A stretch of 64,000 nucleotides of DNA, taken from contig JAIMBK010000003.1 in the NCBI GenBank assembly GCA_023511535.1, forward strand, positions 25,471-89,470, read 5' to 3'. Origin of the DNA: Armatimonadota bacterium. Lineage in GTDB: Bacteria; Bacillota; Desulfotomaculia; Desulfotomaculales; Nap2-2B. Below the pieces are notes generated by a model. It worked only from the letters and a program-made list of their open reading frames with translations, made no database searches and was not told the origin of the DNA. Within the stretch, counting starts at the first letter, position 1, and every line of letters starts with the position of its first letter. The position numbers were made by a program, and so were the translations under genes. This document shows, one piece after another, positions 1 to 64,000 of the stretch.

Positions 1-885
1 GAGCAGTTCCGAATTAAGCTCGGGATGCTGCCGATTATCGATAACCTCCCCTTCTGGGTGGCCCAGGAAAAAGGGTATTTTCAAGCCGAAGGCCTGGACG
101 TGGAATTGATCCCTTTTCCCAGCGCGGTCGAGCGGGACAGCGCCTTTACGGCCCGGAAAATCGACGGGGCGGTGGGCGATCTGCTGGCCGTGGCGGCCTT
201 AAATGACGCCGGCGTGCCGCTGAAAGCGGTGAGCATCGCGATGGGAGCCAAACCCGGCGAGAGCAGGTTTGCCGTGCTGTCCGCGCCGGATTCGAATATT
301 CGCCGGCCGGAGCAGCTGAAAAACGTCGAGATCGCCATGTCTTTGAATTCCATCATCGAGTACACTACGGACCGGCTCCTCCAGCATCAAGGGCTGAAAC
401 CGGACGAGATTAAAAAGGTGTCTATTCCAAAAATGCCCGTTCGCCTGGAATCTCTGCTTCAGGGGAAGGTAAAAGCAGCCACCCTGCCCGATCCGCTGGC
501 CACCCTGGCGGCCATCAAAGGGGCCCACATCGTGGCGGATACCTTAAATGACAACGTTGCGCAGACCGTCGTCATTATTCAGCAGGAGATGCTGGATCAA
601 AACCTGCCGGCGGTGAAGAAATTAATGAAGGCGTACGGGCGGGCCGTGGCCGATATCCAGGCCGACCCCGCCGGCTTTAACAGGCTTCTGGCGGAACAGG
701 CGAAAGTACCGGAAGAGGTCCTGGCCAGCAAAGAGCACCGCCTGCCGGTGAACTTTTCGGCCCCGCAACTCCCGGCTAGAAAAGACGTGCAGGATGTGCT
801 GGACTGGATGAAGGAGCGCAACCTTTTGAAAAAGCCGTTGAAGTACGAGGATCTGGTGGATGAACGGGTAATCGGTAAGGATTAG
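1..885 (+). CDS. ABC transporter substrate-binding protein, NMT1/THI5-like (NitT/TauT family); 5' end outside window
   Basis: ORF 25..885 stays open in-frame back to nt 1. The translated sequence looks like nitrate/sulfonate/pyrimidine-type periplasmic binding proteins. The cognate ATPase and permease follow. Confidence 0.8.
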   Translation, partial: EQFRIKLGMLPIIDNLPFWVAQEKGYFQAEGLDVELIPFPSAVERDSAFTARKIDGAVGDLLAVAALNDAGVPLKAVSIAMGAKPGESRFAVLSAPDSNIRRPEQLKNVEIAMSLNSIIEYTTDRLLQHQGLKPDEIKKVSIPKMPVRLESLLQGKVKAATLPDPLATLAAIKGAHIVADTLNDNVAQTVVIIQQEMLDQNLPAVKKLMKAYGRAVADIQADPAGFNRLLAEQAKVPEEVLASKEHRLPVNFSAPQLPARKDVQDVLDWMKERNLLKKPLKYEDLVDERVIGKD

Positions 886-967
886 CGATTAACCCTCAGG
901 ACGCTTTTTCGGGGCGATGACAAAAATAAGCGAATGCTGTTTTCAGGACGGAGGTATAAAGGCATTG

Positions 968-1030
968 AGGCACAAAGAAAAGATGTGACATTTACTTTGT
1001 GCCTTTGTGCCTGAAAAACTTTGTGCCTGG
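968..1030. repeat. GGCACAAAG / CTTTGTGCC inverted-repeat element (copy K1)
   Basis: aGGCACAAAG, a 21-nt spacer, then CTTTGTGCCTTTGTGCC, aaaaa, CTTTGTGCCtgg. Same 9-mer family as copies at 28083, 40901, 50459 and 57898. Confidence 0.8.
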
Positions 1031-1057
1031 TATTTCGGGGTAGAGACAGGTGATCTT

Positions 1058-3420: not shown

Positions 3421-3456
3421 TAATTCCCATCCCCAACCCCTAACCCCTAATCCCTG
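3421..3456 (+). repeat. Heptamer tract (YAAYYCC)n-TG, copy H1, 5' of rlmD-like gene
   Basis: TAATTCC CATCCCC AACCCC TAACCCC TAATCCC TG, ending 15 nt before ATG 3471. Confidence 0.85.
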
Positions 3457-3470
3457 ATCTGCCGGGGTGG

Positions 3471-4694
3471 ATGATGAATCAGCGTGAATTTGAACTGGAA
3501 ATAACCGAAATGGCCCACCGGGGAGAGGCGGTGGGCAGGCTGAACGGCAAAGTTGTTTTTGTACCCTTCGCCATACCCGGGGAAGTGGTCCTGGTCAGGC
3601 CGCGCCTGGAAAAGAAAGATTACCTCGAAGCGGAGATTGTGGAAATCCGCAAGCCCTCGCCGCACCGGATTGAAGGGGCCTGCGCCGGTTTTGGCCGCTG
3701 CGGGGGCTGCAACTGGCAGCATATCGAGTACGGCTACCAGCTGGAGCTGAAAAGGCAGGTGGTCGAAGACCAGTTGCGGCGCGTGGGCAAGATCGCCAAT
3801 CCCGTGGTAAAGCCGGTTCTTCCCGCCGTCCGGCAGTGGCATTACCGCAACCGCGGTGATTTTTCGGTAAACAAGGAAGGATACCTGGGCTTCCGGATGC
3901 GGGGGACGCATAAATTCGTTCCCGTGCAGGACTGCCGCCTGATGCATCCGCAGATCAACGAGCTGCTTTCCCGGCTCCAGGGAAAATGTACCCGGAGCGC
4001 CGCCCGGAAGACACACAACGTCTGCCTCCGGTACGGCGTGCACACCGGGGAATGGTTAATCCAGCCCTTCCTGGATTTGCCGGACGTCCCGACCGGCCAG
4101 CCCTTTTACCGGGAAAAGCTGCTCGATCACCTCTTTGTTATTTCCGCGGCTTCTTTCTTTCAGGTTAATACCCTGCAGGCCGAGAAATTAATTGCCGTTG
4201 TGGAAGAATTCGTCCGTCCCACCGGGGAGGAAGTGCTGGTGGATGCCTACGCCGGGGTGGGGACGTTTGCTAAAGCCCTGGCGGGAAAAGTCCGCCGGGT
4301 AATCGCGGTGGAGGAGGCGAAGTCGGCGGTAAAAGACGCCGCGGTAAACCTGGAGGGGTTTGCCAATGTCCGGTATTACAAGGCGAAAACGGAAGATTTC
4401 CTGGGACAAATGACCGAAAGGGTGGATGTGGTGATCCTGGACCCGCCCCGGGCCGGTTGTTTCCGTCCGGCGCTGGAAGCCCTGGTGCGGCTCGCCCCGG
4501 CGAAGGTGGTTTACGTCTCCTGCGATCCCGCCACCCTGGCCCGGGATCTTGCCTTCCTGGTCGAAAACGGCTATACCCTCGGCGAAGTCCAGCCCGTGGA
4601 CATGTTTCCCCAGACCTACCACATCGAGTGCGTAGTTTCCATCGAAAGAAAACACAGTATTAATGGCAAGGGTTTGAGGTACTTTGGGAGTTAA
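3471..4694 (+). CDS. 23S rRNA (uracil-5)-methyltransferase, RumA/RlmD family (TRAM + Fe-S + SAM-MTase)
   Basis: N-terminal TRAM-like segment, Cys cluster CAGFGRCGGCNWQH, SAM motif VDAYAGVGTF, and C-terminal VYVSCDPATLARD typical of the RumA family. Confidence 0.85.
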   Translation: MMNQREFELEITEMAHRGEAVGRLNGKVVFVPFAIPGEVVLVRPRLEKKDYLEAEIVEIRKPSPHRIEGACAGFGRCGGCNWQHIEYGYQLELKRQVVEDQLRRVGKIANPVVKPVLPAVRQWHYRNRGDFSVNKEGYLGFRMRGTHKFVPVQDCRLMHPQINELLSRLQGKCTRSAARKTHNVCLRYGVHTGEWLIQPFLDLPDVPTGQPFYREKLLDHLFVISAASFFQVNTLQAEKLIAVVEEFVRPTGEEVLVDAYAGVGTFAKALAGKVRRVIAVEEAKSAVKDAAVNLEGFANVRYYKAKTEDFLGQMTERVDVVILDPPRAGCFRPALEALVRLAPAKVVYVSCDPATLARDLAFLVENGYTLGEVQPVDMFPQTYHIECVVSIERKHSINGKGLRYFGS

Positions 4695-4765: not shown

Positions 4766-5338
4766 TTACATTGCGCGAAAAACGTTAAAGGTCTGTTCTG
4801 GTAAAAAATCATATCTCTCAACCAGGACGTATCCGGCATTTTTCATGGTTTCTTGAATAAACGCCTCTTCAGCATAATGCCCTATCAAGGCAATTACATT
4901 TAGTGTCTTGCGCTTCTTATAATCAATGACAACAACCCTGCCTCCAGGCTTTAGAAAACATTTCAGGGTCTTAAAATAATGTTCTGGTTGATTTAAATGA
5001 TGAAAAACATTTCTCAAAAAAATTAGGTCACAGCCCTCTTTTGGCAAGTTTAATCCGTTTTTATCAATCAATACGGTTTCCACGTTTGTTATTTGATTCT
5101 TCTTAGCGTAATTCTTAACATAAGCCAAAAGCCGGGCATTGGTGTCGACAGCAAATACCCTGCCATTCAATCCCACTGTTTTAGCAAAACGTATTGTAAA
5201 ATAACCTCCACCAGAGCCAATATCTGCAACTACCGCCCCTTTTTGAAGTGAAAGAACTTCGATAATCTCATCCGCCTTGAATTTCGGATGGCTCGCCCTG
5301 CGATTCAACATTTCTGCCCTCTTAAATATAAATAGCAT
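4766..5338 (-). CDS. Class I SAM-dependent methyltransferase (small, stand-alone)
   Basis: Motif I VADIGSGGGYFT and a Methyltransf_11-like layout. Visibly AT-rich compared with flanking genes. Confidence 0.75.
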   Translation of the reverse strand: MLFIFKRAEMLNRRASHPKFKADEIIEVLSLQKGAVVADIGSGGGYFTIRFAKTVGLNGRVFAVDTNARLLAYVKNYAKKNQITNVETVLIDKNGLNLPKEGCDLIFLRNVFHHLNQPEHYFKTLKCFLKPGGRVVVIDYKKRKTLNVIALIGHYAEEAFIQETMKNAGYVLVERYDFLPEQTFNVFRAM

Positions 5339-5472: not shown

Positions 5473-7479
5473 TTACCCGCTACCGACAGGTTTCCCGCAG
5501 CACTTTTTATACTTTTTTCCACTGCCGCACGGGCAGGGATCATTCCGGCCGATCTTCGGAGGTTTGACGATCGGCTTTAGCGGCGGGTGATCGGCCCACT
5601 CTTCGTCATCATCTTCTTCTTCATCGAATAACGGGGCGGATTCTTCCCAGCCCTCCTCGTCCTCATCCGGGAGCCATTCCGGTTCGTCATCGGGGTCAGC
5701 GTCGAACAGGTCCGGAAAGCGGGTATGTAATTTATATAATTCTTGATCGAACTTACTGGTCCTTATCCTTTCCACCTCTTTTTTCAGTTCGGCCATTTCC
5801 GGAAAAGAAATCCCGTTGTTTTCCCCGAGCTCGACGAGAGCGACTTGCGCCGCTTCGACAACTTCTTCGTCTTCGTCGGCGAGAAGGCGCCGGATCTGGA
5901 AAATGGCCGCCGGATCGCCGTATTCCTGGAGATGCTCCAGGGCGGCCCGCCTGATTTCCGGATTGGCGTCTTCAAGCTGGCCCAAAAGAAAGGATAACGA
6001 CCTGGGATGACGGATTTTAGCCAGGGCGCCGCCGACCGAGATAATGTTTTGCCAGGAACCGGTGTTTGTCCAGGCTTGAATTTTCTTGAGGGCGGGTTCG
6101 ATTACTTTTTCCCCGCAGAAGGCCAGGGCATCCTGGATTGTGTGCAGCATCAGTTCCCCGTCTTCGTCTTCCGGATCAACATCCGGAATAACCTCCAGCA
6201 AAGCTTCTACGGCGCCGGGCGTGTTGATTTCCCCCAGGGCCTCGGCGGCCCAGAAACCGGCCTGGCTTCCCGGATATTTTTTCAGGACCGATTTTAACGG
6301 GTTAACTGCCGGATCACCGTAGCCGATGATTTTTTTGAGCAAGAAACGGGGTTTTACCGTGCTTGTAATGATCATTTGGGTAATCAGGGCGGCTAAATCG
6401 TCTGCTTTGCCGGCAGCGGCACCCGGGTTTCTTTTTTCGAAGATCCGGTTAAGTTCTTCCCAGGTGGCGGAGGTGCAGAAAACAGCCAGCTCAAGGTCCC
6501 GGCCGGTATACTTTTCCCTTGTTATTAGTTTTTTCTGGCTTAAGAAACTAAAGGTCGTGATGATTGCCCCGAGCCTGGTATCAATCAGTTTTTGCAGAAT
6601 TCTATCTTCGTCGTGGAAATCGCTCTCCTCCAAAATTCCGGCCGCTTCCAGAACGGCATAGCTGGTCAGGAGCAGGGCTTCCGCGAGGGATTCGTAAAAA
6701 CGCCGGAAGGATTTTTTCTGCAGGGCCTGCAGAGCTGATTTATAGATCTTTTTCAATTCGGGCGGCGCTTCGGCGATCTCTTCATTCACCAGGGAAGAGA
6801 AGAATTCCGTGGCGTCAGCGAGATCTATTTCCCCCTCCTGAAAAAATTCCGGCTTTCCCAGCAGGGAAGCCAGGCATCTGGTTAAGTCGTCCCGGTAAAA
6901 ATCATCGTCCAGGCGATAATATAATTCAATGATCTGCGGCATCGCCCGGTAGCATTGCAATTCGGCCAGCGCTTCGGCGCAGGCGACCTCCTCGTCTGGA
7001 TTTTCTGCTTCCGCCAGAAAGGAAAGCAGTTCTTTTTCCAGACCCTGCTCCGGAAACGCCCCCAGCGCCAGCAAAACCTCCTCCCGGCCGGGGAAGGCGG
7101 GATCGCGGGCGGCCGCGCGCAAGGCCGGAAAAGCTTCCCGGAATCCCAGGTCACCCAGAATGCCGGCCGCTTCCGGGCTCAGCAGATCGTGTTTTTGGTT
7201 CAGGATGGCGATCAGTTTGGGAACGCATCCTTCGTCTCTCAGCCACCGCAAAGAATCCATGGCGCCTAACGCGACCAGGGGATCGCTGTCCCGAAGGGCC
7301 GTTTCCAGGGGGGCCAGCGCCGGGCGGCCGAAATAGCGGAGCTGGAACGCGGCGTGGCGCCTTACCTTTACCTCCGGGCTGGTCAGGTCGCGGGCATAAT
7401 CCTGAACACCTTTCAATTTAACAACCCCTTGTACATTCAATTCCCCCATCCGTTCTGAACACCGGAAGGGAGTGTCCAA
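5473..7479 (-). CDS. HEAT-repeat protein with acidic linker and C-terminal SEC-C zinc motif
   Basis: Repeated HEAT/PBS-lyase-like helices, an acidic D/E run, and terminal [19 protein letters not shown] (SEC-C motif). Start is uncertain: TTG 7479 or ATG 7449. Confidence 0.7.
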
Positions 7480-15241: not shown

Positions 15242-15271
15242 TAATTCCTAATCCCAAATTCCTAATTCCTG
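15242..15271 (+). repeat. Heptamer tract (YAAYYCC)n-TG, copy H2, 5' of iorA RBS
   Basis: TAATTCC TAATCCC AAATTCC TAATTCC TG, followed by cttttaAGGAGG and ATG 15294. Confidence 0.85.
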
Positions 15272-15293
15272 CTTTTAAGGAGGCGGTAGACGC

Positions 15294-17665: not shown

Positions 17666-17693
17666 ATGAAAACAAATACAGCAAAAGTATCTA

Positions 17694-17726
17694 CCCCAAT
17701 TCCCAATTCCTAATTCCCAATTCCTG
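17694..17726 (+). repeat. Heptamer tract (YAAYYCC)n-TG, copy H3, 5' of paaK2 RBS
   Basis: CCCCAATTCC CAATTCC TAATTCC CAATTCC TG, then tatttaAGAGGTGa and ATG 17746. Confidence 0.85.
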
Positions 17727-17745
17727 TATTTAAGAGGTGATCACC

Positions 17746-21224: not shown

Positions 21225-21537
21225 AACATAACGATGGTCTTCAAATCCCGTGAAGGAGGAAAGTAGGCCGGGCCCAGTTCTTCAGGGAGGAGGCGTCGGC
21301 GACTGGAAGCGCCTCTAGAACATGGCTGGTTGAAGTTCCCTCCGGAGGAGCAGGCTGAAAACCTTGAGCGGTAAAGTAGGCTGCGCCGGCTTCTTCCCCC
21401 GTTACCGGGAAGGGGGTATCGGAGTTCATTCCTGTACCTTTTTACCTGAGGGGTTTGCGCTTTTGGCGCAGGCAAGTAGGGTGGTACCGCGAAAAGATTG
21501 ATGGCTTTTCGTCCCTATGGATGAAAAGCCTTTTTTA
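21225..21537 (+). promoter_or_regulatory. T-box riboswitch 1 (complete: Stem I, Stem II, Stem III, T-box, terminator)
   Basis: Stem I base is GGAGG (21255-21259) / CCTCC (21339-21343), with AAAGTA S-turn motifs at 21260 and about 21373. Stem III is GCGCttttGGCGC. T-box core is AAGTAGGGTGGTACCGCG (21474-21491). Terminator is GGCTTTTC...GAAAAGCC plus T6 (21503-21536). Confidence 0.85.
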
Positions 21538-21730: not shown

Positions 21731-22789
21731 ATGGTTGTTGTCATGGAGCCCGGTGCATCACCGGAAACGATCGAAGTCGTCAGCGAGAGGCTGGCCGCCC
21801 AGGGTTTTCAACCGCATTTAATCCATGGCGTCAGCAGAATTGTCATCGCGGCCGTGGGGGAGCACCGCGCGGCGGATACTTCAGGCCTGGAAAACTTGCC
21901 CGGCGTGGAAAAGGTAGTCCCCATCATGAAGCCTTATAAGCTGGCCAGCAGGGAGGTCAGGGGGGAAGACAGCGTGGTGAAAGCCGGCCGGGTGGCGGTA
22001 GGCGGCGGGAGAAGCGTGGTCGTGATGGCCGGGCCGTGCGCCGTCGAAAGCCGCGAGCAGCTGTTCATGGCGGCCCGGGTGGTGAAGCGGGCCGGGGCGA
22101 CAATTTTGCGCGGCGGGGCCTTTAAACCGCGGACGTCTCCCTACAGCTTCCAGGGGTTAGCAGAAAAGGGATTACAGTTGCTGGCGGAGGCAGCCGCCTG
22201 GGCGGGTCTGGCCACGGTGAGCGAAGTAATTGACCAGGAAAGCCTGGACATGGCCAAAGATTACGTGGATATTCTGCAGATTGGGGCGCGCAACATGCAG
22301 AATTTCCGCCTTTTGCGGGCGGCCGGCCGCTCCGGCAAGCCCGTTCTGTTGAAGCGCGGCCTCTCGGCGACCATCGAGGAATGGCTCATGGCGGCGGAAT
22401 ATATCATGTCGGAAGGCAACGAGCAAGTTATCCTGTGCGAACGGGGCATCCGCACCTTTGAGCGCCTGACGCGTAATACCCTGGACTTGAGCGCCGTTTC
22501 TCTGGTGAAAATCTTAAGCCACCTGCCCGTGGTGGTCGATCCCAGCCATGCCACCGGAGACCGGCGCCTGATCGGCCCGATGTCCAAAGCAGCACTGGCG
22601 GCCGGGGCGGACGGCCTGCTCATCGAGGTGCACCCCGATCCTGCTCAGGCGCTGTGCGACGGCCAGCAGTCCCTTAACCCGGAACAATTTACCGCGCTGA
22701 TGCAGGACTTACAGGCAATAACGCTGGTTACCGGGCGAAAATTGGGCAGCCTTCCGGAGGCGGGCAAAGGAATAAAAGCTGCCGGCTAG
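21731..22789 (+). CDS. aroF: 3-deoxy-7-phosphoheptulonate (DAHP) synthase, class I-beta with N-terminal ferredoxin-like regulatory domain
   Basis: N-terminal roughly 70-aa regulatory domain (VVVMEPGAS...), then KDO8P/DAHPS-type barrel (AGPCAVES, GAFKPRTSPYSFQG, DPSH). Confidence 0.9.
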   Translation: MVVVMEPGASPETIEVVSERLAAQGFQPHLIHGVSRIVIAAVGEHRAADTSGLENLPGVEKVVPIMKPYKLASREVRGEDSVVKAGRVAVGGGRSVVVMAGPCAVESREQLFMAARVVKRAGATILRGGAFKPRTSPYSFQGLAEKGLQLLAEAAAWAGLATVSEVIDQESLDMAKDYVDILQIGARNMQNFRLLRAAGRSGKPVLLKRGLSATIEEWLMAAEYIMSEGNEQVILCERGIRTFERLTRNTLDLSAVSLVKILSHLPVVVDPSHATGDRRLIGPMSKAALAAGADGLLIEVHPDPAQALCDGQQSLNPEQFTALMQDLQAITLVTGRKLGSLPEAGKGIKAAG

Positions 22790-25737: not shown

Positions 25738-25895
25738 CCAAATCTCACCCTTTCTAGTGTTTTACCGGTTGCCGGGATAATCTTTCCTCATTATCGCTCA
25801 ACAAAAGATTTCAATAAAAAAATAGAAAACCCTTTTTGGAAAATACATCTTGCTAAATTCCTACACGAAAGGTATAGAAAGAGGGCTGAAGTCAG

Positions 25896-25915
25896 CCCCT
25901 AACCCCTAACCCCTG
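25896..25915 (+). repeat. Heptamer tract copy H5 (G-rich on the mRNA strand, directly after the mutase small-subunit stop)
   Basis: CCCCTAACCCC TAACCCC TG on the + strand, 5 nt from the stop codon of the minus-strand gene 25920..26318. Confidence 0.8.
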
Positions 25916-25919
25916 TCTT

Positions 25920-26363: not shown

Positions 26364-28025
26364 TTAGAAAACAGGCTTTTCTTTGTATTCGCCGAAAACT
26401 TCCTTCATCGTCTGGATGATCTCGCCCTCGGTGGCGTAGGCCCGCACGCACTCCAGGATGCAGGGCATCAGGTTTTCCGTGCCCGCGCAGGCCCGGCGCA
26501 GGTTGTCCAGGGTTTCCTTGACCCGGATGTTGTCCCTTTCCTGGCGCAGCTTCCGCACCCGCTCCACCTGCTCCTTTTCCACCTGCGGGTCAATCTTGAG
26601 AATTTCGATTTCCAGCTGTTCGTCGGGGTTGATAAATTCGTTCACCCCGACTAAAATTCTTTGTTTGCTGTCCAGGGCCTGCTGGTAGCGGTAGGCCGCG
26701 TCGGCAATTTCCTGCTGGAAGAAATTCTGGTCGATGCAGGCCAGCACCCCGCCGCGCCGGTCGATTTCCTCAAAATACTTTTCCGCTTCTTCTTCCATTT
26801 TATTGGTGAGCGCTTCGACGTAGTAGGAGCCGGCCAGGGGGTCGATGACGTTGGCCGCGCCCGTTTCGTAGGCGAGAATCTGCTGGGTGCGCAGGGCGAT
26901 CTGGACCGCCTTTTCGGTGGGCAGCGCCCAGACTTCGTCCATGGAGTTGGTGTGCAGGGACTGGGTTCCGCCCAAAACGGCGGCCATGGCCTCGTAAGCC
27001 GTGCGCACGATGTTGTTTTCCGGCTGCTGGGCGGTGAGGCTGCAGCCGGCGGTCTGGGTGTGGAAGCGCAAAAGCCACGAGCGGGGGTTTTTCGCCCCGT
27101 ATTTTTCCTTCATCCGGCGCGCCCAGATCCGCCGGGCGGCCCGGTACTTGGCGATTTCTTCGAAGAAGTCGATGTGCGCGTTGAAGAAGAAGGACAGCCG
27201 GGGGGCGAAGTCGTCCACGTCAAGCCCTGCTTTGATCCCCGCTTCCACGTAGGCGAAGCCGTCGGCCAGGGTAAAGGCCAGCTCCTGGACGGCGGTGGAG
27301 CCGGCTTCCCGGATGTGGTAGCCGCTGATGCTGATGGTGTTCCATTTGGGCACGTGTTTGGAACCGAATTCGAAAATGTCCGTAATGATCCGCATGGACG
27401 GTTCGGGTGGGAAGATCCAGGATTTCTGGGCGATGTATTCCTTTAGGATGTCGTTCTGGATGGTGCCCGTGAGCTGCTCCGGGCGCACTCCCTGCTTTTC
27501 CCCGGTGGCGATGTACATGGCCCAGATCACCGAGGCGGGGGCGTTGATGGTCATCGAGGTGCTCACCTTATCCATGGGGATGCCGTCAAAAAGGGTTTCG
27601 AAGTCCTGCAGGGAGTCGATGGCCACGCCGCACCGGCCCACTTCGCCCAAGGAGCGGGGATGGTCGCTGTCGTAGCCCATGATGGTGGGCATGTCAAAGG
27701 CAATGCTCAAGCCCGTCTGGCCTTTTTCAAGCAGGTACTTGTAACGCTGGTTGGAGTCCTTTGCCGTGCCGAAGCCGGCAAACTGGCGCATGGTCCACAG
27801 GCGCCCGCGGTACATGTTCCCCTGGACGCCGCGGGTAAAGGGGTAGAGGCCGGGGAAGCCCAAATCGCGCAGGTAGTCTAAGCCTTCGATGTCCAGAGGG
27901 GTGTAAAGATCGTTGACCGGCAGGCCGGAGACCGTTTCAAACCGTTCTTCCCGGTCCTTCATTTTGCCGCGCAGTTCCAGCCATTGTTGCCGTCCCTTGC
28001 GGATTTCTTCGGATTCATTGCCCAT
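26364..28025 (-). CDS. icmA: Acyl-CoA mutase large (substrate-binding) subunit, isobutyryl-CoA-mutase-type signature
   Basis: Global MCM-family sequence. Substrate-carboxylate residues are replaced: RQFAGF (Phe for MCM Tyr89) and KEYIAQKSW (Gln for MCM Arg207). Confidence 0.8.
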
Positions 28026-28082
28026 AAAATTACCACCTCATTTCCTAAAAATTATATAAATTTAATCCTTTTATGAAGTTTT

Positions 28083-28155
28083 CCAGGCACAAAGGCACAA
28101 AGTAAAATATTCCCTGGTTGCACCTGTTTCTTCGTGCCTTCGTGCCCCCTGTGCC
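28083..28155. repeat. GGCACAAAG / CTTYGTGCC inverted-repeat element (copy K2)
   Basis: ccaGGCACAAAGGCACAAAG, a 29-nt spacer, then CTTCGTGCCTTCGTGCC, ccCTGTGCC. Confidence 0.8.
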
Positions 28156-28247
28156 TCCCCTATAAAAATAGCTTTCGCACATTTTCATCTTCTGTTGATG
28201 TCGCCGAAAAAGCAGCATGGAGGTTTAATCCCCGATCTTTTCTCTAT

Positions 28248-28274
28248 CCCCTAATTCCCAATCCCCAATTCCTG
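28248..28274 (+). repeat. Heptamer tract copy H6 (G-rich on the mRNA strand, directly after the activase stop)
   Basis: CCCCTAATTCC CAATCCC CAATTCC TG on the + strand, 4 nt from the stop of minus-strand gene 28278..29228. Confidence 0.8.
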
Positions 28275-28277
28275 TCT

Positions 28278-29228
28278 TTATACGTCCCAGCGCGGGCAGC
28301 GTCCTCCCCAGCGCCCGATGATCCGGTCCGCTTCGTAAATCTCCACGATTTCGCACGTATTGGGGCAGCCGTCGCACTCGAAACTGCTTGTGCGGTAACG
28401 CACTTGCGCGGCGCCAAAACCCTTAAAACTGGTGGACCCTTTTTTGCCGGCCTCTTCTTTGGCCAGGTAGGCGGCGCCGATGGCGCCCATGATTTTATGG
28501 TGCTCCGGGACATAAATTTCCAGTTTTAAAGCCCGCTCAAAGGCCGCCTTAATGCCGACGTTGGCCGCTACCCCGCCCTGGAAGACAACCGGCGGAAGGA
28601 TTTCCTTGCCCTTTCCCACGTTGTTCAGGTAGTTGCGCACCAGGGCCTCGCACAACCCGTTAATGATGTCCGGCAGGGAGTGCCCCATTTGTTGTTTGTG
28701 GATCATGTCCGATTCGGCAAAGACGGTGCACCGGCCGGCGATCCGGACGGGTTTTTGCGACTGCAGGGCCAGGCTGCCGAACTGGTCGATGGGAATGTTC
28801 AAGCGCGCCGCCTGCTGGTCCAAAAAAGAGCCCGTTCCAGCCGCGCAGACGGTATTCATGGCAAAATCAACCACCACCCCCCGGCGCAAAATAATCATTT
28901 TCGAATCCTGGCCTCCGATTTCGAATACGGTCTGAACGTCGGGAATCAACAGAGAAGCAGCTAAAGCGTGGGCGGTAATTTCGTTTTTAATCACGTCGGC
29001 ACCCACCATTACGCCGGCCAGGAAACGGCCGCTTCCCGTGGTCCCCGCGCCGGCGATTTCGATCCCCGCCGGCAAACTTTCCCGGACCTGCCGCAGGCCT
29101 GTCTGGATGGCTTCAATCGGCCTTCCGGCCGTGCGCAAATACAACCCGCTCAGAATTTCCCCGGCTTCCGTCAGGATCACCAGGTTTGTACTGACGGAGC
29201 CCACATCGATGCCAAGGTAAGCTTTCAT
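28278..29228 (-). CDS. BadF/BadG/BcrA/BcrD-type ATPase (2-hydroxyacyl-CoA dehydratase activase-like)
   Basis: Acetate/sugar-kinase fold N-terminus LGIDVGSVSTN. Cluster-bridging Cys contexts (VCAAGTGSF, AGRCTVFAESD). C-terminal Cys-rich tail CDGCPNTCEI. Confidence 0.85.
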   Translation of the reverse strand: MKAYLGIDVGSVSTNLVILTEAGEILSGLYLRTAGRPIEAIQTGLRQVRESLPAGIEIAGAGTTGSGRFLAGVMVGADVIKNEITAHALAASLLIPDVQTVFEIGGQDSKMIILRRGVVVDFAMNTVCAAGTGSFLDQQAARLNIPIDQFGSLALQSQKPVRIAGRCTVFAESDMIHKQQMGHSLPDIINGLCEALVRNYLNNVGKGKEILPPVVFQGGVAANVGIKAAFERALKLEIYVPEHHKIMGAIGAAYLAKEEAGKKGSTSFKGFGAAQVRYRTSSFECDGCPNTCEIVEIYEADRIIGRWGGRCPRWDV

Positions 29229-31349: not shown

Positions 31350-31367
31350 GGCCGCACCTCCTGGGAA

Positions 31368-31400
31368 CAGGGATTAGGGGTTGGGGATTAGGGGATAGGG
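31368..31400 (-). repeat. Heptamer tract copy H7, 5' of the triad RBS
   Basis: Minus strand reads CCCTATCCCCTAATCCC CAACCCC TAATCCC TG, then ttcccAGGAGG and ATG 31349. Confidence 0.85.
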
Positions 31401-31603
31401 TTTACTTTTATGCCGCTTTTAGTGATCACAACGGAACAACAGAGGGTGCCCGGCGCACAGCTCAGGTTAATTTTTTTTGTTCTGAGCAGGGAGCTGGGAG
31501 CCGGTTGCTGATTCCGGATATCTATTTTCCTCTGTGTTCTCTGTGGTTAAATTTATATTATTGAGTATTTCTATGACTGCGGGGAAAATCCTCTTCCAAA
31601 AGG

Positions 31604-33615: not shown

Positions 33616-33636
33616 GACTGAAAACCTCCTTGAAAA

Positions 33637-33666
33637 TAGGAATTGGGGATTGGGAATTAGGGATTA
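33637..33666 (-). repeat. Heptamer tract copy H8 in the hsp20 5' UTR
   Basis: Minus strand reads TAATCCC TAATTCC CAATCCC CAATTCC TA, then ttttcaAGGAGG and ATG 33615. Confidence 0.85.
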
Positions 33667-33812
33667 GCCCTCTTCCCGGACATGCTTGTTTTCATATCTG
33701 AAATTAAATTTGCCCGGAAACAACCGCAAATATACGCATAATAAAAGCAGGAAAATAACCTTTGTGCAGCGAAAGTCGAATAGTGGAGAAGGGACAAGGG
33801 AGATGATTTGCT

Positions 33813-36032: not shown

Positions 36033-36187
36033 GCCCCGGGGGACACAGTGAACAAAAGAAGATCCGGGGTAGACCTCCATGCCGCTTTTCACGCCACCAA
36101 TATGGGATGAAAAAGTTCTTTTGTTGATGAGAGAAGCTGCCCTCTGTGCCCTCTATGGCTTAAAACTTTGCAAAGGAGGAAACCGTT

Positions 36188-40894: not shown

Positions 40895-40900
40895 AAAGAG

Positions 40901-41140
40901 GTACAAAGGACAAAAAAGAAAGGCACAGAGGCACAAAGGCACAAAGAAAGAAAGGAATCAAGGGATTAAAGGGCCAGCGGCACAAGGGCACAGAGGAGTA
41001 GAGGTACTAAAGAATAGAATCAACCCGGTACCTGTTTTTAAACTTTGTGCCTTAGTGCCTGGTTAACTTTCCAATCTATATACCTCAGTGCTTAAACTAA
41101 CTTCTTAACCTTTGTGCTTTTGTGCCTGCTCAACTTTGTG
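40901..41140. repeat. Largest GGCACAAAG / CTTTGTGCC inverted-repeat cluster (copy K3)
   Basis: The left half has at least 6 GTACAAAG/GGCACAGAG/GGCACAAAG-type units. The right half has at least 5 CTTTGTGCC/CTTAGTGCC/CTTTTGTGCC-type units. It fills the etfA-thiolase spacer. Confidence 0.85.
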
Positions 41141-41219
41141 TTTCCCAAGACGTAGACCAGATGAGCAAAGCGGCCATTTCAGAGGTTTATTTCTAATGGA
41201 AGGGGGAAAACTTTTCCCG

Positions 41220-46209: not shown

Positions 46210-46860
46210 TTGTTTACCGGCATCGTCGAAGAACTGGGAACACTCCGGCAAATTGTCCGGGGAACCGCCTCGGCCCGTTTAAAAATTGAGGCCCGGCACG
46301 TGCTGGAAGGAACCCGCGCAGGGGACAGCATTGCGGTCAACGGAGTTTGCCTCACCGTTACCGCCCTGGACAAAAACTTTTTCACCGCCGACGTGATGGC
46401 CGAAACCCTGGCCAAAACAAATTTAGGGCAACTGGCGCCCGGCGACCGGGTTAACCTGGAGCGCGCCCTGCGGCTGGACGCCCGCCTGGGCGGGCACCTG
46501 GTGAGCGGCCACATCGACGGCGTGGGAACAATCCTCCGGCGCGAACCGCACGACATCGCCACCCTGCTGACGATCGGCGCCCCTGCCGGGGTAATGCGCT
46601 ACATTATTAAAAAAGGCTCCGTGGCTATTGACGGGATCAGCCTGACGGTGATAGATTTTAATGATAGCAGCTTTCAAGTTTCCCTCATTCCCCATACGGC
46701 CGCCCTGACCACGCTGGGCTTCAAAAGGCCCGGCGACACCGTGAACCTGGAGGCCGACCTCATCGGGAAGTACGTGGAGCGCCTTTTACTCCAGAGGGAA
46801 AACGGCCGCCGGGAAAAGCTGTCCCTGGCCTTTTTGGCCGAACACGGATTTATGGAATAG
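46210..46860 (+). CDS. ribE: Riboflavin synthase
   Basis: MFTGIVEELG N-terminus, duplicated lumazine-binding barrel. TTG start. Confidence 0.95.
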   Translation: MFTGIVEELGTLRQIVRGTASARLKIEARHVLEGTRAGDSIAVNGVCLTVTALDKNFFTADVMAETLAKTNLGQLAPGDRVNLERALRLDARLGGHLVSGHIDGVGTILRREPHDIATLLTIGAPAGVMRYIIKKGSVAIDGISLTVIDFNDSSFQVSLIPHTAALTTLGFKRPGDTVNLEADLIGKYVERLLLQRENGRREKLSLAFLAEHGFME

Positions 46861-46922
46861 GGATTGGGGGTTAGGGATTGGGAATTAGTGTCGCGGGTTA
46901 GGAATTAGGAATTGGGGGATTG
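46858..46922 (-). repeat. Heptamer tracts copy H9 (two blocks; G-rich on the mRNA strand, starting at the ribE stop)
   Basis: + strand reads TAGGGATTGGGGGTTAGGGATTGGGAATTAG (46858-46888) and GGTTAGGAATTAGGAATTGGGGGATTG (46896-46922). Confidence 0.85.
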
Positions 46923-50458: not shown

Positions 50459-50494
50459 GGCACAAAGGCATCAGGCTCAGAAACACAAAGGAAC
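50459..50494. repeat. GGCACAAAG-type repeat (copy K4, left-arm units only)
   Basis: GGCACAAAGGCAtcaggctcagaaACACAAAGGAAC. Confidence 0.6.
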
Positions 50495-50778: not shown

Positions 50779-50799
50779 GAAAAACACCTCCTATAAAAA

Positions 50800-50832
50800 C
50801 AGGAATTAGGAATTGGGAATTAGGAATTGGGG
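50800..50832 (-). repeat. Heptamer tract copy H10, 5' of rpmB RBS
   Basis: Minus strand reads CCCCAATTCC TAATTCC CAATTCC TAATTCC TG, then tttttatAGGAGGTG and TTG 50778. Confidence 0.85.
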
Positions 50833-51178
50833 AAAGAAAAAATCACTTTGATATTCTACCAAAAGAAAAAAGGCGGCGCAAGCCACTTTTTTCAAATTAA
50901 AAAGTAAATATGCGGTGAAACCGCTCACCGCAACATTTTAAAATTGGAAATGTGCAAAATAAATTCCCTCCAAAATATGCCTGCCCTAATTCGCCTGTCA
51001 TTAAATGCCTCTCATGCCTGTACGTACCATTTTCTTATTCACACATTCCCAGTGAGATGGAGGAGCGTGCCCCCTTTTTCTAATGATCCGGGCCTTTCTC
51101 GGGTAAAATGTTCTAGTTATAAATTATTTTATTGACGACAATACTAAGACCAGGATAAAGACAAGGAGGTGAAACACG

Positions 51179-57814: not shown

Positions 57815-57897
57815 TAATCATATTAGACATCCATGCTGCAAACGCAGCATCAGCAGAGGATGAAAATTAGCGAAGGTTATTTTCAGGTCAAAAGCAA

Positions 57898-57967
57898 CCA
57901 GGCACAGAGGCATAAAGAAAAAAGGTGACCTGAATATTTTGCCTTTGTGTCCGGGAACTTTGTGCCT
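57898..57967. repeat. GGCACAAAG / CTTTGTGCC inverted-repeat element (copy K5)
   Basis: ccaGGCACAGAGGCATAAAG, a spacer, then GCCTTTGTGTCC, gggaaCTTTGTGCCtg. Confidence 0.8.
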
Positions 57968-58013
57968 GATATTTAAGGGTAGGAAAGAGAGCTAATCTCT
58001 GATTAAAAACTTT

Positions 58014-58039
58014 AATTCCCAAATCTAGTTTTGGGAATT
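58014..58039. promoter_or_regulatory. Perfect 10-bp inverted repeat upstream of crp-1
   Basis: AATTCCCAAA tctagt TTTGGGAATT, about 50 nt upstream of GTG 58091. Confidence 0.4.
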
Positions 58040-58787: not shown

Positions 58788-58900
58788 ATTCCCTCCCCAG
58801 TTCCCCACCCCTGATTTCCAATTGTCAACCCCCAATTCCCACCCCTAATCCTAATCCCTAAGTTTAACTTCAACTCCAATCCCTAATTCACAATTCCCAA
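58788..58900 (+). repeat. Longest, degenerate heptamer-tract region (copy H11)
   Basis: About 110 nt of CCCTCCCC / CCCCAATTCCC / CCCCTAATCC TAATCCC TAA ... CAATCCC TAATTCA CAATTCCC units between crp-1 and the TauE-like gene. Confidence 0.75.
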
Positions 58901-58967
58901 ATTATCAACTTACGTTCAAAATATGTCATCTACTTGCTAATAACCTGTCGTCAGGATGACCTTTATT

Positions 58968-60471: not shown

Positions 60472-60496
60472 CCCCCCTCCCAATTCCTGATTCCTG
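60472..60496 (+). repeat. Heptamer tract copy H12
   Basis: CCCCCCTCC CAATTCC TGATTCC TG, about 50 nt upstream of ATG 60546. Confidence 0.7.
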
Positions 60497-60545
60497 TTTT
60501 GCCCGGGGTTGCGCCTGGAAACGTTCGTTCCGAGGTGATTTTTTT

Positions 60546-63820: not shown

Positions 63821-63942
63821 GGCATCAACCCACCTTACCAATCCAACGCTTTTAAGACTATTTCAAAAGAGTTTCTCGAGAGAACTTACGTTTTCTCCAA
63901 ACATTAAGGATGAAAAACAGTCATTTCCATCAAGAATATTTA

Positions 63943-63962
63943 CCCTCAATCCCTAATCCCTG
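63943..63962 (+). repeat. Heptamer tract copy H13 at the window edge
   Basis: CCCTCAATCCC TAATCCC TG then tatttaat..., presumably 5' of a + strand gene beyond nt 64000. Confidence 0.7.
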
Positions 63963-64000
63963 TATTTAATATTCTTCCTGCGTCCTCTGGATTCCTTCTG

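Follow-up and report, generated by a model that had tools for sequence, protein, structure and literature searches.

A polar intergenic repeat with tandem octamer arms, likely a hairpin in operon mRNAs

Introduction

The spacer between etfA and a thiolase gene at 40901-41140 of the 64-kb window (the whole stretch of DNA that we analyzed) contains clusters of a short purine-rich unit facing clusters of its reverse complement, which raises the question of what kind of element occupies this spacer and at what level, DNA or RNA, it might act. The original prediction assigned it to a dispersed, REP/MITE-like palindromic family with five clear copies in the window and a weak one near 36140. The question is of wider interest because families of intergenic repeats influence the expression of operons and the plasticity of genomes and disrupt short-read assemblies; two contigs (L123 and L124) end inside the element. 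Our analysis favors the view that this spacer holds one copy of an intergenic repeat that is lineage-specific, non-autonomous and recently mobile and that likely forms a hairpin in operon mRNAs.

Results

The octamer arms lie at the center of a larger, polar composite

The proposed over-representation of GGCACAAAG-type units was upheld in the window, where GGCACAAAG with at most one mismatch matched 41 times compared with 22.4 ± 4.5 times in shuffled sequence (0 of 100 shuffles reached 41), and most of the excess fell within the named clusters. The unit, however, is not 9 nt long as proposed, the actual period being 8 nt, (GGCACAAA)n and then G. Nor are the spans originally quoted whole elements, because alignments and a covariance model revealed larger elements with a defined polarity, in which the octamer arms form the center of a composite of about 110–200 nt that also contains conserved non-repeat modules. 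The core is a long imperfect palindrome, made of one to six purine-rich octamers (GGCACNAA), a spacer with the conserved sequence ..GACCGGGAATATTTTA, and two or three CTTTGTGCC units that are interrupted by TGGAAAA. Full-length copies have in addition a 5′ module (ATTAGAC..CATGCTGC-N4-GCAGCA..GGATGAAAATTAGCGAAGGTTATTTTCAGG) and a 3′ module (TGRTATTTC.GGGTAG), and the non-repeat modules are conserved in several genomes (alignments A1, A2 and A3). No clear inverted repeat relates the two outermost conserved ends (ATTAGAC.. and ..TATTTC.GGGTAG), and the arms, as tandem GGCACNAA / TTTGTGCC octamers, have no GTAG head. Conservation is asymmetric, with the pyrimidine (CTTTGTGCC) arm much better conserved than the purine arm.

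With the covariance model, family members scored 49–96 bits in the sense orientation and about 28–32 bits in antisense. Its significant matches in the 64-kb window were exactly four, listed here together with two one-armed fragments:

Element A, 881..1043, + strand: full length, between an NMT1-type substrate-binding protein gene (stop 883-885) and an ABC ATPase gene (ATG 1058).
Element B, 28067..28223, − strand: between a BcrAD/BadFG activase gene (stop 28278) and a methylmalonyl-CoA mutase gene (start 28025).
Element C, 40897..41145, + strand: the flagged locus, a compound nested hairpin from the etfA stop (40894) to the thiolase start (41220).
Element E, 57822..57983, + strand: full length, between a UbiA prenyltransferase gene (stop 57814) and a Crp/Fnr regulator gene (58031).
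Fragment D, 50459..50494, + strand: a degenerate array resembling the purine arm, 3 nt past the stop of a quinolinate phosphoribosyltransferase-like gene.
Fragment F, 36140..36160, + strand: a degenerate pair resembling the pyrimidine arm, CTCTGTGCC CTCTATGGC, upstream of a GalT gene.

The strand preference was pronounced for A (96 bits on + and 28 on −), B (84 bits on − and 28 on +) and E (81 bits on + and 32 on −), and the same three folded more stably in sense than in antisense (A, −34.7 kcal/mol with z = −6.8 versus −22.5; B, −34.6 versus −22.9; E, −25.5 versus −18.6). Their paired-arm hairpins are at 968-1030, 28083-28155 and 57898-57967, with z scores from −3.6 to −6.8. In a comparison with four relatives (L130, L131, L132 and L133), the 3′ end of B proved to be truncated relative to its L130 orthologue. 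The prediction that each locus can fold as a hairpin thus stood, when folding was checked, for A, B, C and E and failed for the two fragments. Of the "five clear copies", four have paired arms, and the fifth, fragment D, lacks the reverse arm, does not fold (−1.4 kcal/mol, z = 0.08) and scores only 9–11 bits. The copy near 36140 is indeed weak, consisting of a right arm only, without a fold and missed by the covariance model. An ordinary terminator-like hairpin, spotted by eye, lies 3′ of fragment D. Gene positions showed all copies to be intergenic, and the etfA–thiolase and activase–mutase contexts had been given correctly.

The original description of the flagged locus itself was borne out by the sequence. 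Its forward units lie at 40900-40946 and 40979-40995 and its reverse units at 41043-41059 and 41110-41140, in three parts:

Purine-rich left arms, 40900..40995, + strand: GGTACAAAG, GGCACAGAG-GCACAAAG-GCACAAAG, GGCACAAGG-GCACAGAG.
Inner right-arm block, 41043..41072, + strand: CTTTGTGCC-TTAGTGCC-TGGTTAACTTTCC.
Outer right-arm block, 41110..41140, + strand: CTTTGTGCT-TTTGTGCC-TGCTCAA-CTTTGTG, repeat family D13.

As RNA, element C folds at −84.9 kcal/mol (z = −4.85), and a covariance model built without C recovered it at 40920-41069, where the + strand scored 49 bits and the − strand 28.

Known families gave no match, in keeping with the earlier failure to recognize this one. A search of the whole window against Rfam at the gathering threshold returned only a T-box, and E-value scans of C and E returned nothing, or mir-590 at 19.8 bits (gathering score 65). 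In the literature, a tandem 17-mer of the octamer was absent from published papers and the octamer unit GGCACAAA was unreported.

Elements occupy different sites in close relatives

High-scoring copies were found in L130 (four in 14 kb, all intergenic) and L131 (one), and the covariance model found no copies in L132, L133, L125, L126 or Desulfofundulus kuznetsovii (L128). Within a 14-kb syntenic block, different spacers are occupied in the window, in L130 (98% identical) and in L131 (96%), and relatives at 92% have no elements in that block; these and the other identities given for relatives refer to protein. More broadly, relatives at 83–92% protein identity, including D. kuznetsovii, have no elements. 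Because sites differ among relatives at 96–98% and elements are absent at 83–92%, we conclude that copies have recently been gained, lost and copied, and the comparison of orthologous loci therefore supports the proposed mobility, both as presence versus absence and as site turnover.

The etfA–thiolase spacer illustrates this turnover. Where an element is present, it spans 325 nt (window) or about 245 nt (L122, 96% identical), and where there is none, 98 nt (L125), 45 nt (L126) or 13 nt (L128). The L122 orthologue of C is a shorter version, missing a 68-nt segment that includes the inner right-arm block, and the left (purine) arm of C is ~22% diverged from it, as compared with 10–14.5% at four-fold sites of the flanking genes. 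Unit number likewise differs between the window and L122, L130 and L131.

Whole composites also recur at unrelated sites. Over about 185 nt, element E shares 82% identity with a non-orthologous L130 copy in the spacer between an HSP20 and a GH18 gene, which equals the identity between orthologous copies of B. That L130 copy stands in place of a spacer segment in which the window, L131 and L132 carry a terminator-like hairpin, recognized by eye. Between filled and empty orthologous spacers, one segment is exchanged for another instead of being cleanly inserted, and no duplicated flank indicative of a target-site duplication was visible at them.

The genomes thus form a natural series, 92–100% identical in protein, in which the element is absent, at different sites, truncated or expanded, and which could be used to measure both its spread and its effects on neighboring genes.

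Elements lie in sense to their neighbors and fold better as sense RNA

Seven of the eight independent copies for which database gene calls were available are in sense to the adjacent genes; one L130 copy, at 4981-5091, is antisense to its neighbors. Because the sense copies include B and the L130 and L131 copies within a minus-strand gene block, orientation tracks transcription and not replication. In the spacers that hold A, B, C and E, we detected no σ70-like promoter or terminator-like site on the sense strand, the few consensus matches of these scans being confined to coding sequence or the antisense strand, and no intrinsic terminator at the four elements, whose tails are only moderately U-rich. 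With neither promoter nor terminator detected, co-transcription with the flanking genes is most likely. The copies in L075 and in the HSP20–GH18 spacer of L130 lie upstream of a promoter-like site, and the element is therefore not always in a 5′ UTR. A 9-of-12 promoter-like match is present inside element B on the antisense strand.

In 12 of 13 copies, the sense strand gave the more stable RNA fold, with a gain over antisense of up to 15 kcal/mol that arises through G·U pairs. Wobble-compatible transitions outnumbered the mirror-image classes 40 to 9, although many of the 40 were inherited from the family consensus and are not independent events. Covariation was almost all one-sided, with only two pairs showing compensatory changes in RNAalifold. 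Across phyla, for which gene calls were crude, the advantage of the sense fold was a weak trend (about 19 of 26).

The octamer follows a strand rule in many phyla

Arrays of the octamer GGCACAAA are found across many phyla as well as in viral contigs, in most cases with the purine arm leading, and obey a strand rule, with the purine arm past stops and the pyrimidine arm ahead of starts: at 120 loci from many phyla, analyzed with crude ORF calls, the arms adjoining starts were C-rich in 37 cases and G-rich in 11, and those adjoining stops were G-rich in 41 and C-rich in 8. The octamer-carrying genomes also have many other, unrelated 7–8-nt tandem units. For 7–8-nt units other than the octamer, arrays were too few to generalize the rule, with counts of 14 versus 4 at stops and 4 versus 3 at starts.

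The observation that no transposase is associated extended to all 120 array-bearing loci, near which we found neither a transposase nor any other recurrent gene; all-against-all clustering of the nearby ORFs yielded only generic groups (ABC ATPases, histidine kinases, sulfatases and TPR proteins). One candidate, a 23S-rRNA-IVS (four-helix-bundle) gene between arrays in an Opitutales locus (L073), was coincidental, with an iterative search placing it at only 2 of the 120 loci. A family-specific 27-mer was found in a single contig (L121) of the metagenomes scanned, and element A had no match in plasmid and phage collections. Two proteins encoded in the window, looked up by exact match, likewise returned no entry.

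Discussion

Relation to known repeats

The elements are dispersed, non-coding and, by fold and covariance model, palindromic, and with their site turnover they fit the REP/MITE-like character first ascribed to them. We regard them as a new intergenic repeat family that resembles REP/BIME sequences or MITEs and is assembled from STRR-like (short tandemly repeated repetitive) units; we do not assign them to REP sequences proper (GTAG plus RAYT, the REP-associated tyrosine transposase) or to classical MITEs (with terminal inverted repeats and a target-site duplication). With the REP and BIME sequences of enterobacteria and pseudomonads, including REPINs, which RAYT transposases mobilize, they share the character of high-copy, extragenic, imperfect palindromes, often in operons, as well as a mosaic structure of several short modules, lineage specificity with site turnover, probable transcription with the host operon and a proposed role as stabilizer of mRNA 3′ ends, attenuator or processing site. 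Copy density is also REP-like (four elements in the 64-kb window and four in 14 kb of L130, several of them between co-directional genes). Unlike REP/BIME, they have no GTAG-type head, their arms are tandem octamers and not a single 20–40-nt palindrome, and they are longer (about 110–250 nt) and strongly polar; a non-exhaustive survey of the ORFs in the 64 kb of the genome covered showed no RAYT gene. Bacterial MITEs such as Correia/NEMIS, RUP and ERIC resemble them in being non-coding, 100–250 nt long, internally symmetric by inversion and dispersed in intergenic DNA, in insertion polymorphism between close strains and, as is likely here, in co-transcription. They appear to differ from MITEs at their ends, where obvious terminal inverted repeats were not seen, the large inverted arms being internal, and they differ in showing no target-site duplication, filled and empty sites differing by segment replacement instead. 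A cognate autonomous IS that shares their ends was likewise not seen, either in the window or at the other loci examined. With the PATEs derived from IS200/IS605 they have in common an absence of target-site duplications and, apparently, of terminal inverted repeats, a sub-terminal hairpin (here CATGCTGC-N4-GCAGCA at the 5′ end) and strand-specific behavior; unlike PATEs, they have no conserved tetra- or pentanucleotide 5′ of insertions, follow local transcription in their orientation and not one replication strand, and have no TnpA or TnpB gene in any locus examined.

The octamer arrays also belong to the phenomenon of STRRs, or long-unit microsatellites with units of 5–11 nt, which includes cyanobacterial heptamers and the GGGNATC-type repeats of Xanthomonas and Nostoc (PMC4692102) and the TAACTGA repeats of Beggiatoaceae, cyanobacteria and Bacteroidetes (PMC4679880). 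Like these, the arrays consist of intergenic, head-to-tail 7–8-nt units, vary in unit number between close relatives, are sometimes inverted and able to form stem-loops, and share one unit among unrelated phyla without a known transfer mechanism or function. They also place the G-rich strand past stops and the C-rich strand ahead of starts, the very rule reported for G-rich heptamers (PMC4692102, Rehm 2015). Unlike STRRs, the arrays of this lineage form part of a larger conserved element that has polarity and is copied in its entirety, and GGCACAAA offers only GG tracts and hence little G-quadruplex potential. A strand rule shared by the octamer in many phyla and viral contigs ties the family to the question of why STRRs exist and suggests an RNA-level constraint that can be tested.

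A hairpin in operon transcripts

Considering orientation, fold and context together, we think that the element probably acts as an RNA hairpin in operon transcripts. Lying in sense between co-directional genes and probably co-transcribed with them, it would fold within the operon transcript or, seen from the upstream gene, as part of its 3′ UTR. Such a REP/BIME-like stem-loop could block 3′-exonucleolytic decay, dampen read-through or direct processing, and would thereby set the relative expression of the flanking cistrons, with its pyrimidine arm just upstream of the next ribosome-binding site. Slippage would change the number of units, and a trans-acting function may copy whole elements to new intergenic sites. 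The stronger conservation of the pyrimidine arm relative to the purine arm is not predicted by a plain structural hairpin, and the element could also be neutral or selfish.

Alternative explanations

Among the alternatives, we consider it unlikely that the arrays are purely by-products of microsatellite slippage and fold-back copying, functionless, not copied as a unit, and tolerated only where strand-specific constraints allow. The head-to-tail 8-mers differing in number between 96–98% relatives, the existence of one-armed arrays (fragment D and one in the MCM–B12 spacer of L131), the many other 7–8-nt tandem units in octamer-carrying genomes and the strand rule reported for G-rich heptamers (PMC4692102) are all as this explanation would have them. 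What it leaves unexplained are the conserved non-repeat modules found around and between the arms in several genomes, the strong polarity under the covariance model and the 82% identity over about 185 nt of non-orthologous copies, since slippage alone cannot make the same ~200-nt composite at new loci. Action at the DNA level seems rather improbable as well. Ribbon-helix-helix proteins of the MetJ or omega type bind tandem 7–8-bp boxes, and a protein of this class or a nucleoid-associated one could use the 8-bp boxes as operators, regulating adjacent genes or organizing the chromosome; this would suit the nearly invariant CTTTGTGCC boxes, whose partner arm drifts, and the arrays near gene starts. 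A double-stranded site is strand-symmetric, however, and would account for neither the sense polarity and orientation bias nor the G·U folding advantage, and the downstream genes are functionally unrelated (ABC ATPase, mutase, thiolase, Crp regulator), with several copies inside operons that have no promoter-like site. Quite improbable in our estimation is a cold-shock switch, in which the pyrimidine arm (GCCUUUGU)n would be a series of cold-shock-domain heptamers masked by the purine arm, and the hairpin would melt in response to Csp level or temperature, with effects on how well the downstream cistron is translated or how stable it is. The consensus of Bacillus subtilis CspB is GTCTTTG/T, with C3, T4 and T6 preferred (PMC1904285), and right-arm GCCTTTG(T) agrees with it at 6 of 7 positions, including these three. 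The conserved arm is indeed the pyrimidine arm that adjoins gene starts, and universal cold-shock domains could explain why the octamer recurs in many phyla. The case nevertheless comes from sequence resemblance, with position 2 not the preferred T, and must contend with very stable hairpins (−25 to −85 kcal/mol at 37 °C) and with the many unrelated 7–8-nt units in the same kinds of genome. An extension of the idea, to which we give similarly little credence, is that GGCACAAA/UUUGUGCC arrays are an RNA signal shared across phyla, with tandem sites for cold-shock-domain or other universal single-stranded-RNA-binding proteins before starts and a cis-acting purine mask past the preceding stops, that would spread horizontally as a portable switch and make the translation or stability of operon cistrons depend on Csp level or temperature; if true, it would give a first mechanistic handle on the unexplained STRR and heptamer repeats.

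Two further explanations were considered. That the ATG in the 5′ module (GGATGAAAAT) opens a short ORF into the purine arm, whose translation would control hairpin formation as in leader-peptide attenuation, is very doubtful: the ORFs of A and E, read from the sequence, do have 22–23 codons, a common TGA and an in-frame 3-nt indel, but in B, L130, L074 and L091 the length of the ORF and the place of its stop differ greatly, SD-like purines occur only right against the ATG (0–2 nt), and short-form copies join ATGAAAAT directly to the arm in other frames. We give almost no weight to σ54 promoter or enhancer sites, to which the GGCAC of the units, resembling a −24 element, and the activators encoded near homologous operons in relatives might point. 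As had been argued earlier, the spacing does not fit, the distance from GG to GC being set by an 8-nt period, and none of the 17 matches to TGGCAC-N5-TTGCW with up to two mismatches (fewer than the 29 expected by chance) fell in an element. Alternative-sigma motifs and a LexA-like GAAC-N4-GTTC box, noticed by eye upstream of some copies in metagenome-assembled genomes, were inconsistent and absent from the window.

The pyrimidine arm also has a consequence for annotation, in that it creates false N-terminal extensions of ORFs. Those predicted at 1007 and 41112 were both confirmed as spurious: downstream of element A, the true start as read from the sequence is ATG 1058, and the thiolase ORF, which can be extended to a TTG at 41112 in the outer right-arm block of C, truly starts at ATG 41220, where MREVV corresponds to the N terminus of homologues.

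The octamer arrays form the core of a larger, polar repeat element

The spacer between etfA and the thiolase gene had been described at 40901-41140 as purine-rich units, a centre and reverse-complement blocks, and we read the same layout. The purine-rich units, 3′ of the etfA stop (40894), are GGTACAAAG, GGCACAGAG-GCACAAAG-GCACAAAG and GGCACAAGG-GCACAGAG; beyond the central region lie one reverse-complement block from 41043 (CTTTGTGCC-TTAGTGCC) and another from 41110 (CTTTGTGCT-TTTGTGCC...CTTTGTG). The repeat unit was previously taken to be a 9-mer, but its true period is 8 nt. Allowing at most one mismatch, we found 41 matches to GGCACAAAG in the window versus 22.4 ± 4.5 in dinucleotide shuffles (0 of 100 shuffles attained 41), with the excess gathered at 969-1027, 28086-28146, 40900-41126 and 57901-57966.

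These octamers are merely the central part of a larger element. An alignment of nine copies from the window and Bacillota MAGs (A1) yielded the consensus (GGCACnAA)(GGCACAGA)(GGCACAAAG) A.AAA..GACCGGGAATATTTTA, which continues 3′ as (CTTTGTGCC)(TTTGTGCC) TGGAAAA (CTTTGTGCC) TGAT.TTT. Two other alignments (A2 and A3) revealed that full-length copies have an additional 5′ module, ATTAGAC..CATGCTGC-N4-GCAGCA..GGATGAAAATTAGCGAAGGTTATTTTCAGG, and an additional 3′ module, TATTTC.GGGTAG; in A3 the long stem is closed by CAGG of the 5′ module and CCTG behind the last unit. A covariance model based on A1, from whose training the etfA–thiolase copy (element C) was left out, detected four significant elements across the window and no others, A, B, E and C, scoring 96, 84, 81 and 49 bits on the better strand and 28–32 bits on the opposite strand. 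Because one strand scored far above the other, the element has a defined polarity.

Elements in the window, with the genes before and after each
881-1043, + strand: element A; NMT1-type binding protein gene, then ABC ATPase gene
28067-28223, − strand: element B; activase gene, then methylmalonyl-CoA mutase gene
40897-41145, + strand: element C; etfA, then thiolase gene
57822-57983, + strand: element E; UbiA gene, then Crp/Fnr gene

Five clear hairpin copies had been proposed, of which these four form long RNA hairpins in folding predictions (A, −34.7 kcal/mol, z = −6.8; B, −34.6 kcal/mol, z = −4.7; C, −84.9 kcal/mol, z = −4.85; E, −25.5 kcal/mol, z = −3.6). The fifth, at 50459-50494, is unfolded and has only degenerate forward units, with an ordinary terminator-like hairpin 3′ of it by eye. 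The weak copy near 36140 is a fragment consisting of the right arm only. Likewise in agreement with the original prediction, the N-terminal ORF extensions at 1007 and 41112 are spurious: both starts fall within pyrimidine (reverse-complement) arms, and the real genes start past them, at ATG 1058 and ATG 41220.

Asymmetry of the element and its transcriptional context

In 12 of 13 copies, predicted stability favored the sense RNA over the antisense RNA, with a margin of up to 15 kcal/mol, a result that we confirmed for A, B and E; the gap arises because sense-strand mismatches form G·U pairs. Against the consensus unit we counted 40 wobble-compatible transitions (A→G or C→U) and 9 of the mirror-image classes. 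This count is inflated, as variants like GGCACAGA are part of the family consensus and were inherited together. Despite the inflation, the asymmetry built into the element runs the way that a folded sense transcript would predict. Conservation was far higher in the pyrimidine arm than in the purine arm: between the window and its 96%-identical relative L122, the purine arm diverged by ~22% and the loop and pyrimidine arm by ~7–8%, compared with 10–14.5% at four-fold sites of the flanking genes. True compensatory covariation was almost absent from the element alignments.

The genes around A, B, C and E are functionally unrelated, and each of the four elements runs in the direction of both neighbors, including B, which lies on the minus strand amid a minus-strand gene block. 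In the family as a whole, orientation follows transcription in nearly every copy. Consensus scans of these four spacers found no σ70-type promoter or terminator-like site on the sense strand; the few matches were in coding sequence or on the opposite strand, among them a 9-of-12 promoter-like match inside B on the antisense strand. The units had been judged not to be σ54 promoters, and no σ54-consensus match occurred within the elements, nor did the element match any Rfam family. Because sense-strand promoters, terminators, σ54 sites and Rfam matches were all lacking, the simplest reading is co-transcription with the flanking genes, which we infer for the elements. The best-supported mechanism, to which we give moderate credence, is that the element functions as a co-transcribed RNA stem-loop, which would exert REP-like effects on operon mRNA.

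Turnover of the element among close relatives

The host belongs to the Bacillota and is related to Desulfofundulus: its thiolase and mutase are 83% and 87–88% identical, respectively, to those of Desulfofundulus species. A methylmalonyl-CoA mutase 100% identical to that of the window (26364-28025, − strand; protein record P0121) is found on an NCBI MAG contig that carries the label 'Armatimonadetes bacterium'. Close relatives all come from Desulfofundulus or Desulfotomaculia (87–88% identity), and the label appears to be an error of binning or taxonomy. At 21241-21519 (+), upstream of the ORF at 21731-22789, the window has a T-box leader (Rfam RF00230, 96.7 bits), which fits a Bacillota origin.

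The etfA–thiolase spacer (thiolase identity to the window in brackets)
Window: 325 nt, element present
L122 (96%): ~245 nt, shorter element without the 68-nt second right-arm block
L125 (87%): 98 nt, no element
L126 (84%): 45 nt, no element
D. kuznetsovii, L128 (83%): 13 nt, no element

The last three contigs held no octamer arrays within 5–21 kb. The short-read contigs L123 and L124, which are independent of each other and derive from relatives at 94% identity, both begin (position 1) inside the right arm of the etfA–thiolase element, which suggests that the repeat breaks assemblies.

We also recovered a 14-kb syntenic block from four relatives, and the occupied spacers differed among the window, L130 and L131.

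Elements in the 14-kb block (protein identity to the window in brackets)
Window: activase–mutase spacer only
L130 (98%): activase–mutase, HSP20–GH18, GH18–HgdB (antisense copy) and DUF3786–HSP20
L131, MAG158 (96%): spacers used by the window and L130 empty; one-armed array at MCM–B12; full copy between POR and ILVD
L132 and L133 (92%): no elements

Relative to the L130 copy, window element B is truncated, with ~160 nt missing between two AACTT repeats. The HSP20–GH18 copy of L130 stands in place of a segment that carries, by eye, a terminator-like hairpin in the window, L131 and L132, and it is 82% identical to element E at an unrelated locus, equal to the identity between the orthologous B copies. 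Presence or absence at orthologous loci, proposed earlier as a check of mobility, was therefore positive, and the elements were recently mobile or copied in this Desulfofundulus-related lineage. A mobilizing activity would be implied. At filled versus empty sites a segment was replaced, with no clean insertion flanked by a target-site duplication. As anticipated, no transposase, nor any other recurrent gene, accompanied the arrays among the matches listed (at least 120 loci, described below). One candidate, a 23S-rRNA intervening-sequence (four-helix-bundle) protein gene between opposed octamer arrays in an Opitutales MAG (L073, 847-2035), was rejected, being confined to Opitutales at 2 of these loci; the same region has a fragment of a second such gene.

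In the GH18–HgdB spacer, 31422-31546 (−) forms a −38 kcal/mol hairpin with arms CACAGAGAACACAGAGG and CCTCTGTTGTTCCGTTGTG at the exact place of L130's full antisense element; it escaped the covariance model and could be a degraded remnant or belong to another subfamily. In relatives at 92–96% (L131, 12133-18493; L133), the B12-binding subunit gene and ilvD are separated by a ~6-kb block with genes for a σ54-dependent PAS activator, glutamate dehydrogenase, ferredoxin and a 2-oxoacid:ferredoxin oxidoreductase. This block is missing from the window (25738-25919) and L130, and a heptamer array (25893-25915) lies at the window junction.

The octamer hairpin recurs across phyla

An exact scan for two tandem octamer units in one genome per species (596 Gb) returned at least 120 loci, against a chance expectation of ~70 single matches; many of the loci listed have multi-unit arrays, which chance does not yield. 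The listed loci represent Opitutales, spirochaetes, Desulfobacterota, Bacteroidota, sphingomonads, Planctomycetota, Hydrogenedentota, Bacillota, cyanobacteria and an archaeon. Among the matches listed, 44 arrangements were forward-then-reverse, 10 reverse-then-forward and 99 of one orientation only. Crude gene calls on these matches gave a strand rule: on the sense strand, gene starts adjoined 37 CTTTGTGCC arms versus 11 GGCACAAAG arms, and stops 41 GGCACAAAG arms versus 8 CTTTGTGCC arms. Outside the Bacillota lineage, in other phyla, the covariance model scored about equally on both strands (35–58 bits): they have just the octamer hairpin in common, not the polar composite. Array-bearing genomes also have many further 7–8-nt tandem units, among them the GGAATTA/GGGAATT heptamers of which the window's second repeat family consists; this abundance makes it less surprising that any one unit should recur by chance in several phyla. 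We also detected octamer hairpins in 52 IMG/VR viral contigs, whereas reference collections of plasmids and phages gave zero matches to the composite element.

Several MAG copies of the element (L074 ~3590-3610, L091 ~1930-1945 and L030 ~1500-1515) have a LexA-box-like palindrome, GAAC-N4-GTTC, 15–30 nt upstream of the ATGAAAAT module; it is missing from the window copies. A tail outside the octamers, CCTTTGAACCTGAGTAGT, is common to elements at L005 ~5190-5215, L111 ~7110-7135 and L163 ~4860-4883, from a 'delta proteobacterium' MAG, a 'Firmicutes' MAG and a viral contig, and could reflect horizontal transfer or mislabelled bins.

Relationship to known repeats

REP/BIME elements and MITEs are nearest to the composite element in behavior, but on the features tested it departs from their formal definitions, having neither the GTAG head of REPs nor the clear terminal inverted repeats and target-site duplication of MITEs. 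The octamer arrays, taken alone, match the STRR / long-unit SSR class. G-rich heptamers following the same strand and position rule, with inverted arrangements and with variation among close relatives, have been described without a known function (Rehm et al., PMC4692102), and a heptamer common to unrelated phyla immediately upstream of start codons has been proposed to bind S1, Csp or CsrA (MacGregor, PMC4679880). The conserved arm GCCTTTG(T) matches the B. subtilis CspB consensus GTCTTTG/T (preferred C3, T4, T6; PMC1904285) at 6 of 7 positions, including C3, T4 and T6, a resemblance of sequence only. The tandem octamer was absent from the literature searched. The original prediction of a dispersed, unrecognized REP/MITE-like palindromic family thus holds, in the form of inverted octamer arrays without a counterpart in Rfam or that literature: the family of polar, hairpin-forming intergenic repeats is real and previously undescribed. 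Its main value lies in the clean comparative series of relatives and the cross-phylum strand rule.

A second family of heptamer arrays

The window also contains tandem heptamers of the GGGAATT/GGAATTA/GGGGTTA type, at 3422-3462, 15243-15277, 17685-17734, 25893-25915, 28239-28282, 31364-31398, 33629-33667, 46854-46913, 50792-50835, 58820-58905, 60472-60502 and 63938-63968. They usually terminate in ...CAGGAATT or AATTCCTG, often adjoin octamer elements and, like them, occupy a given orthologous spacer in some close relatives but not in others. Near-identical arrays occur in Opitutales (L029, L073), Calditrichia (L056) and a Bacillota MAG (L037). At 58014-58039 the heptamer unit forms a short perfect hairpin, AATTCCCAAA-N6-TTTGGGAATT, which overlaps the putative TTG start (58031) of the Crp/Fnr gene.
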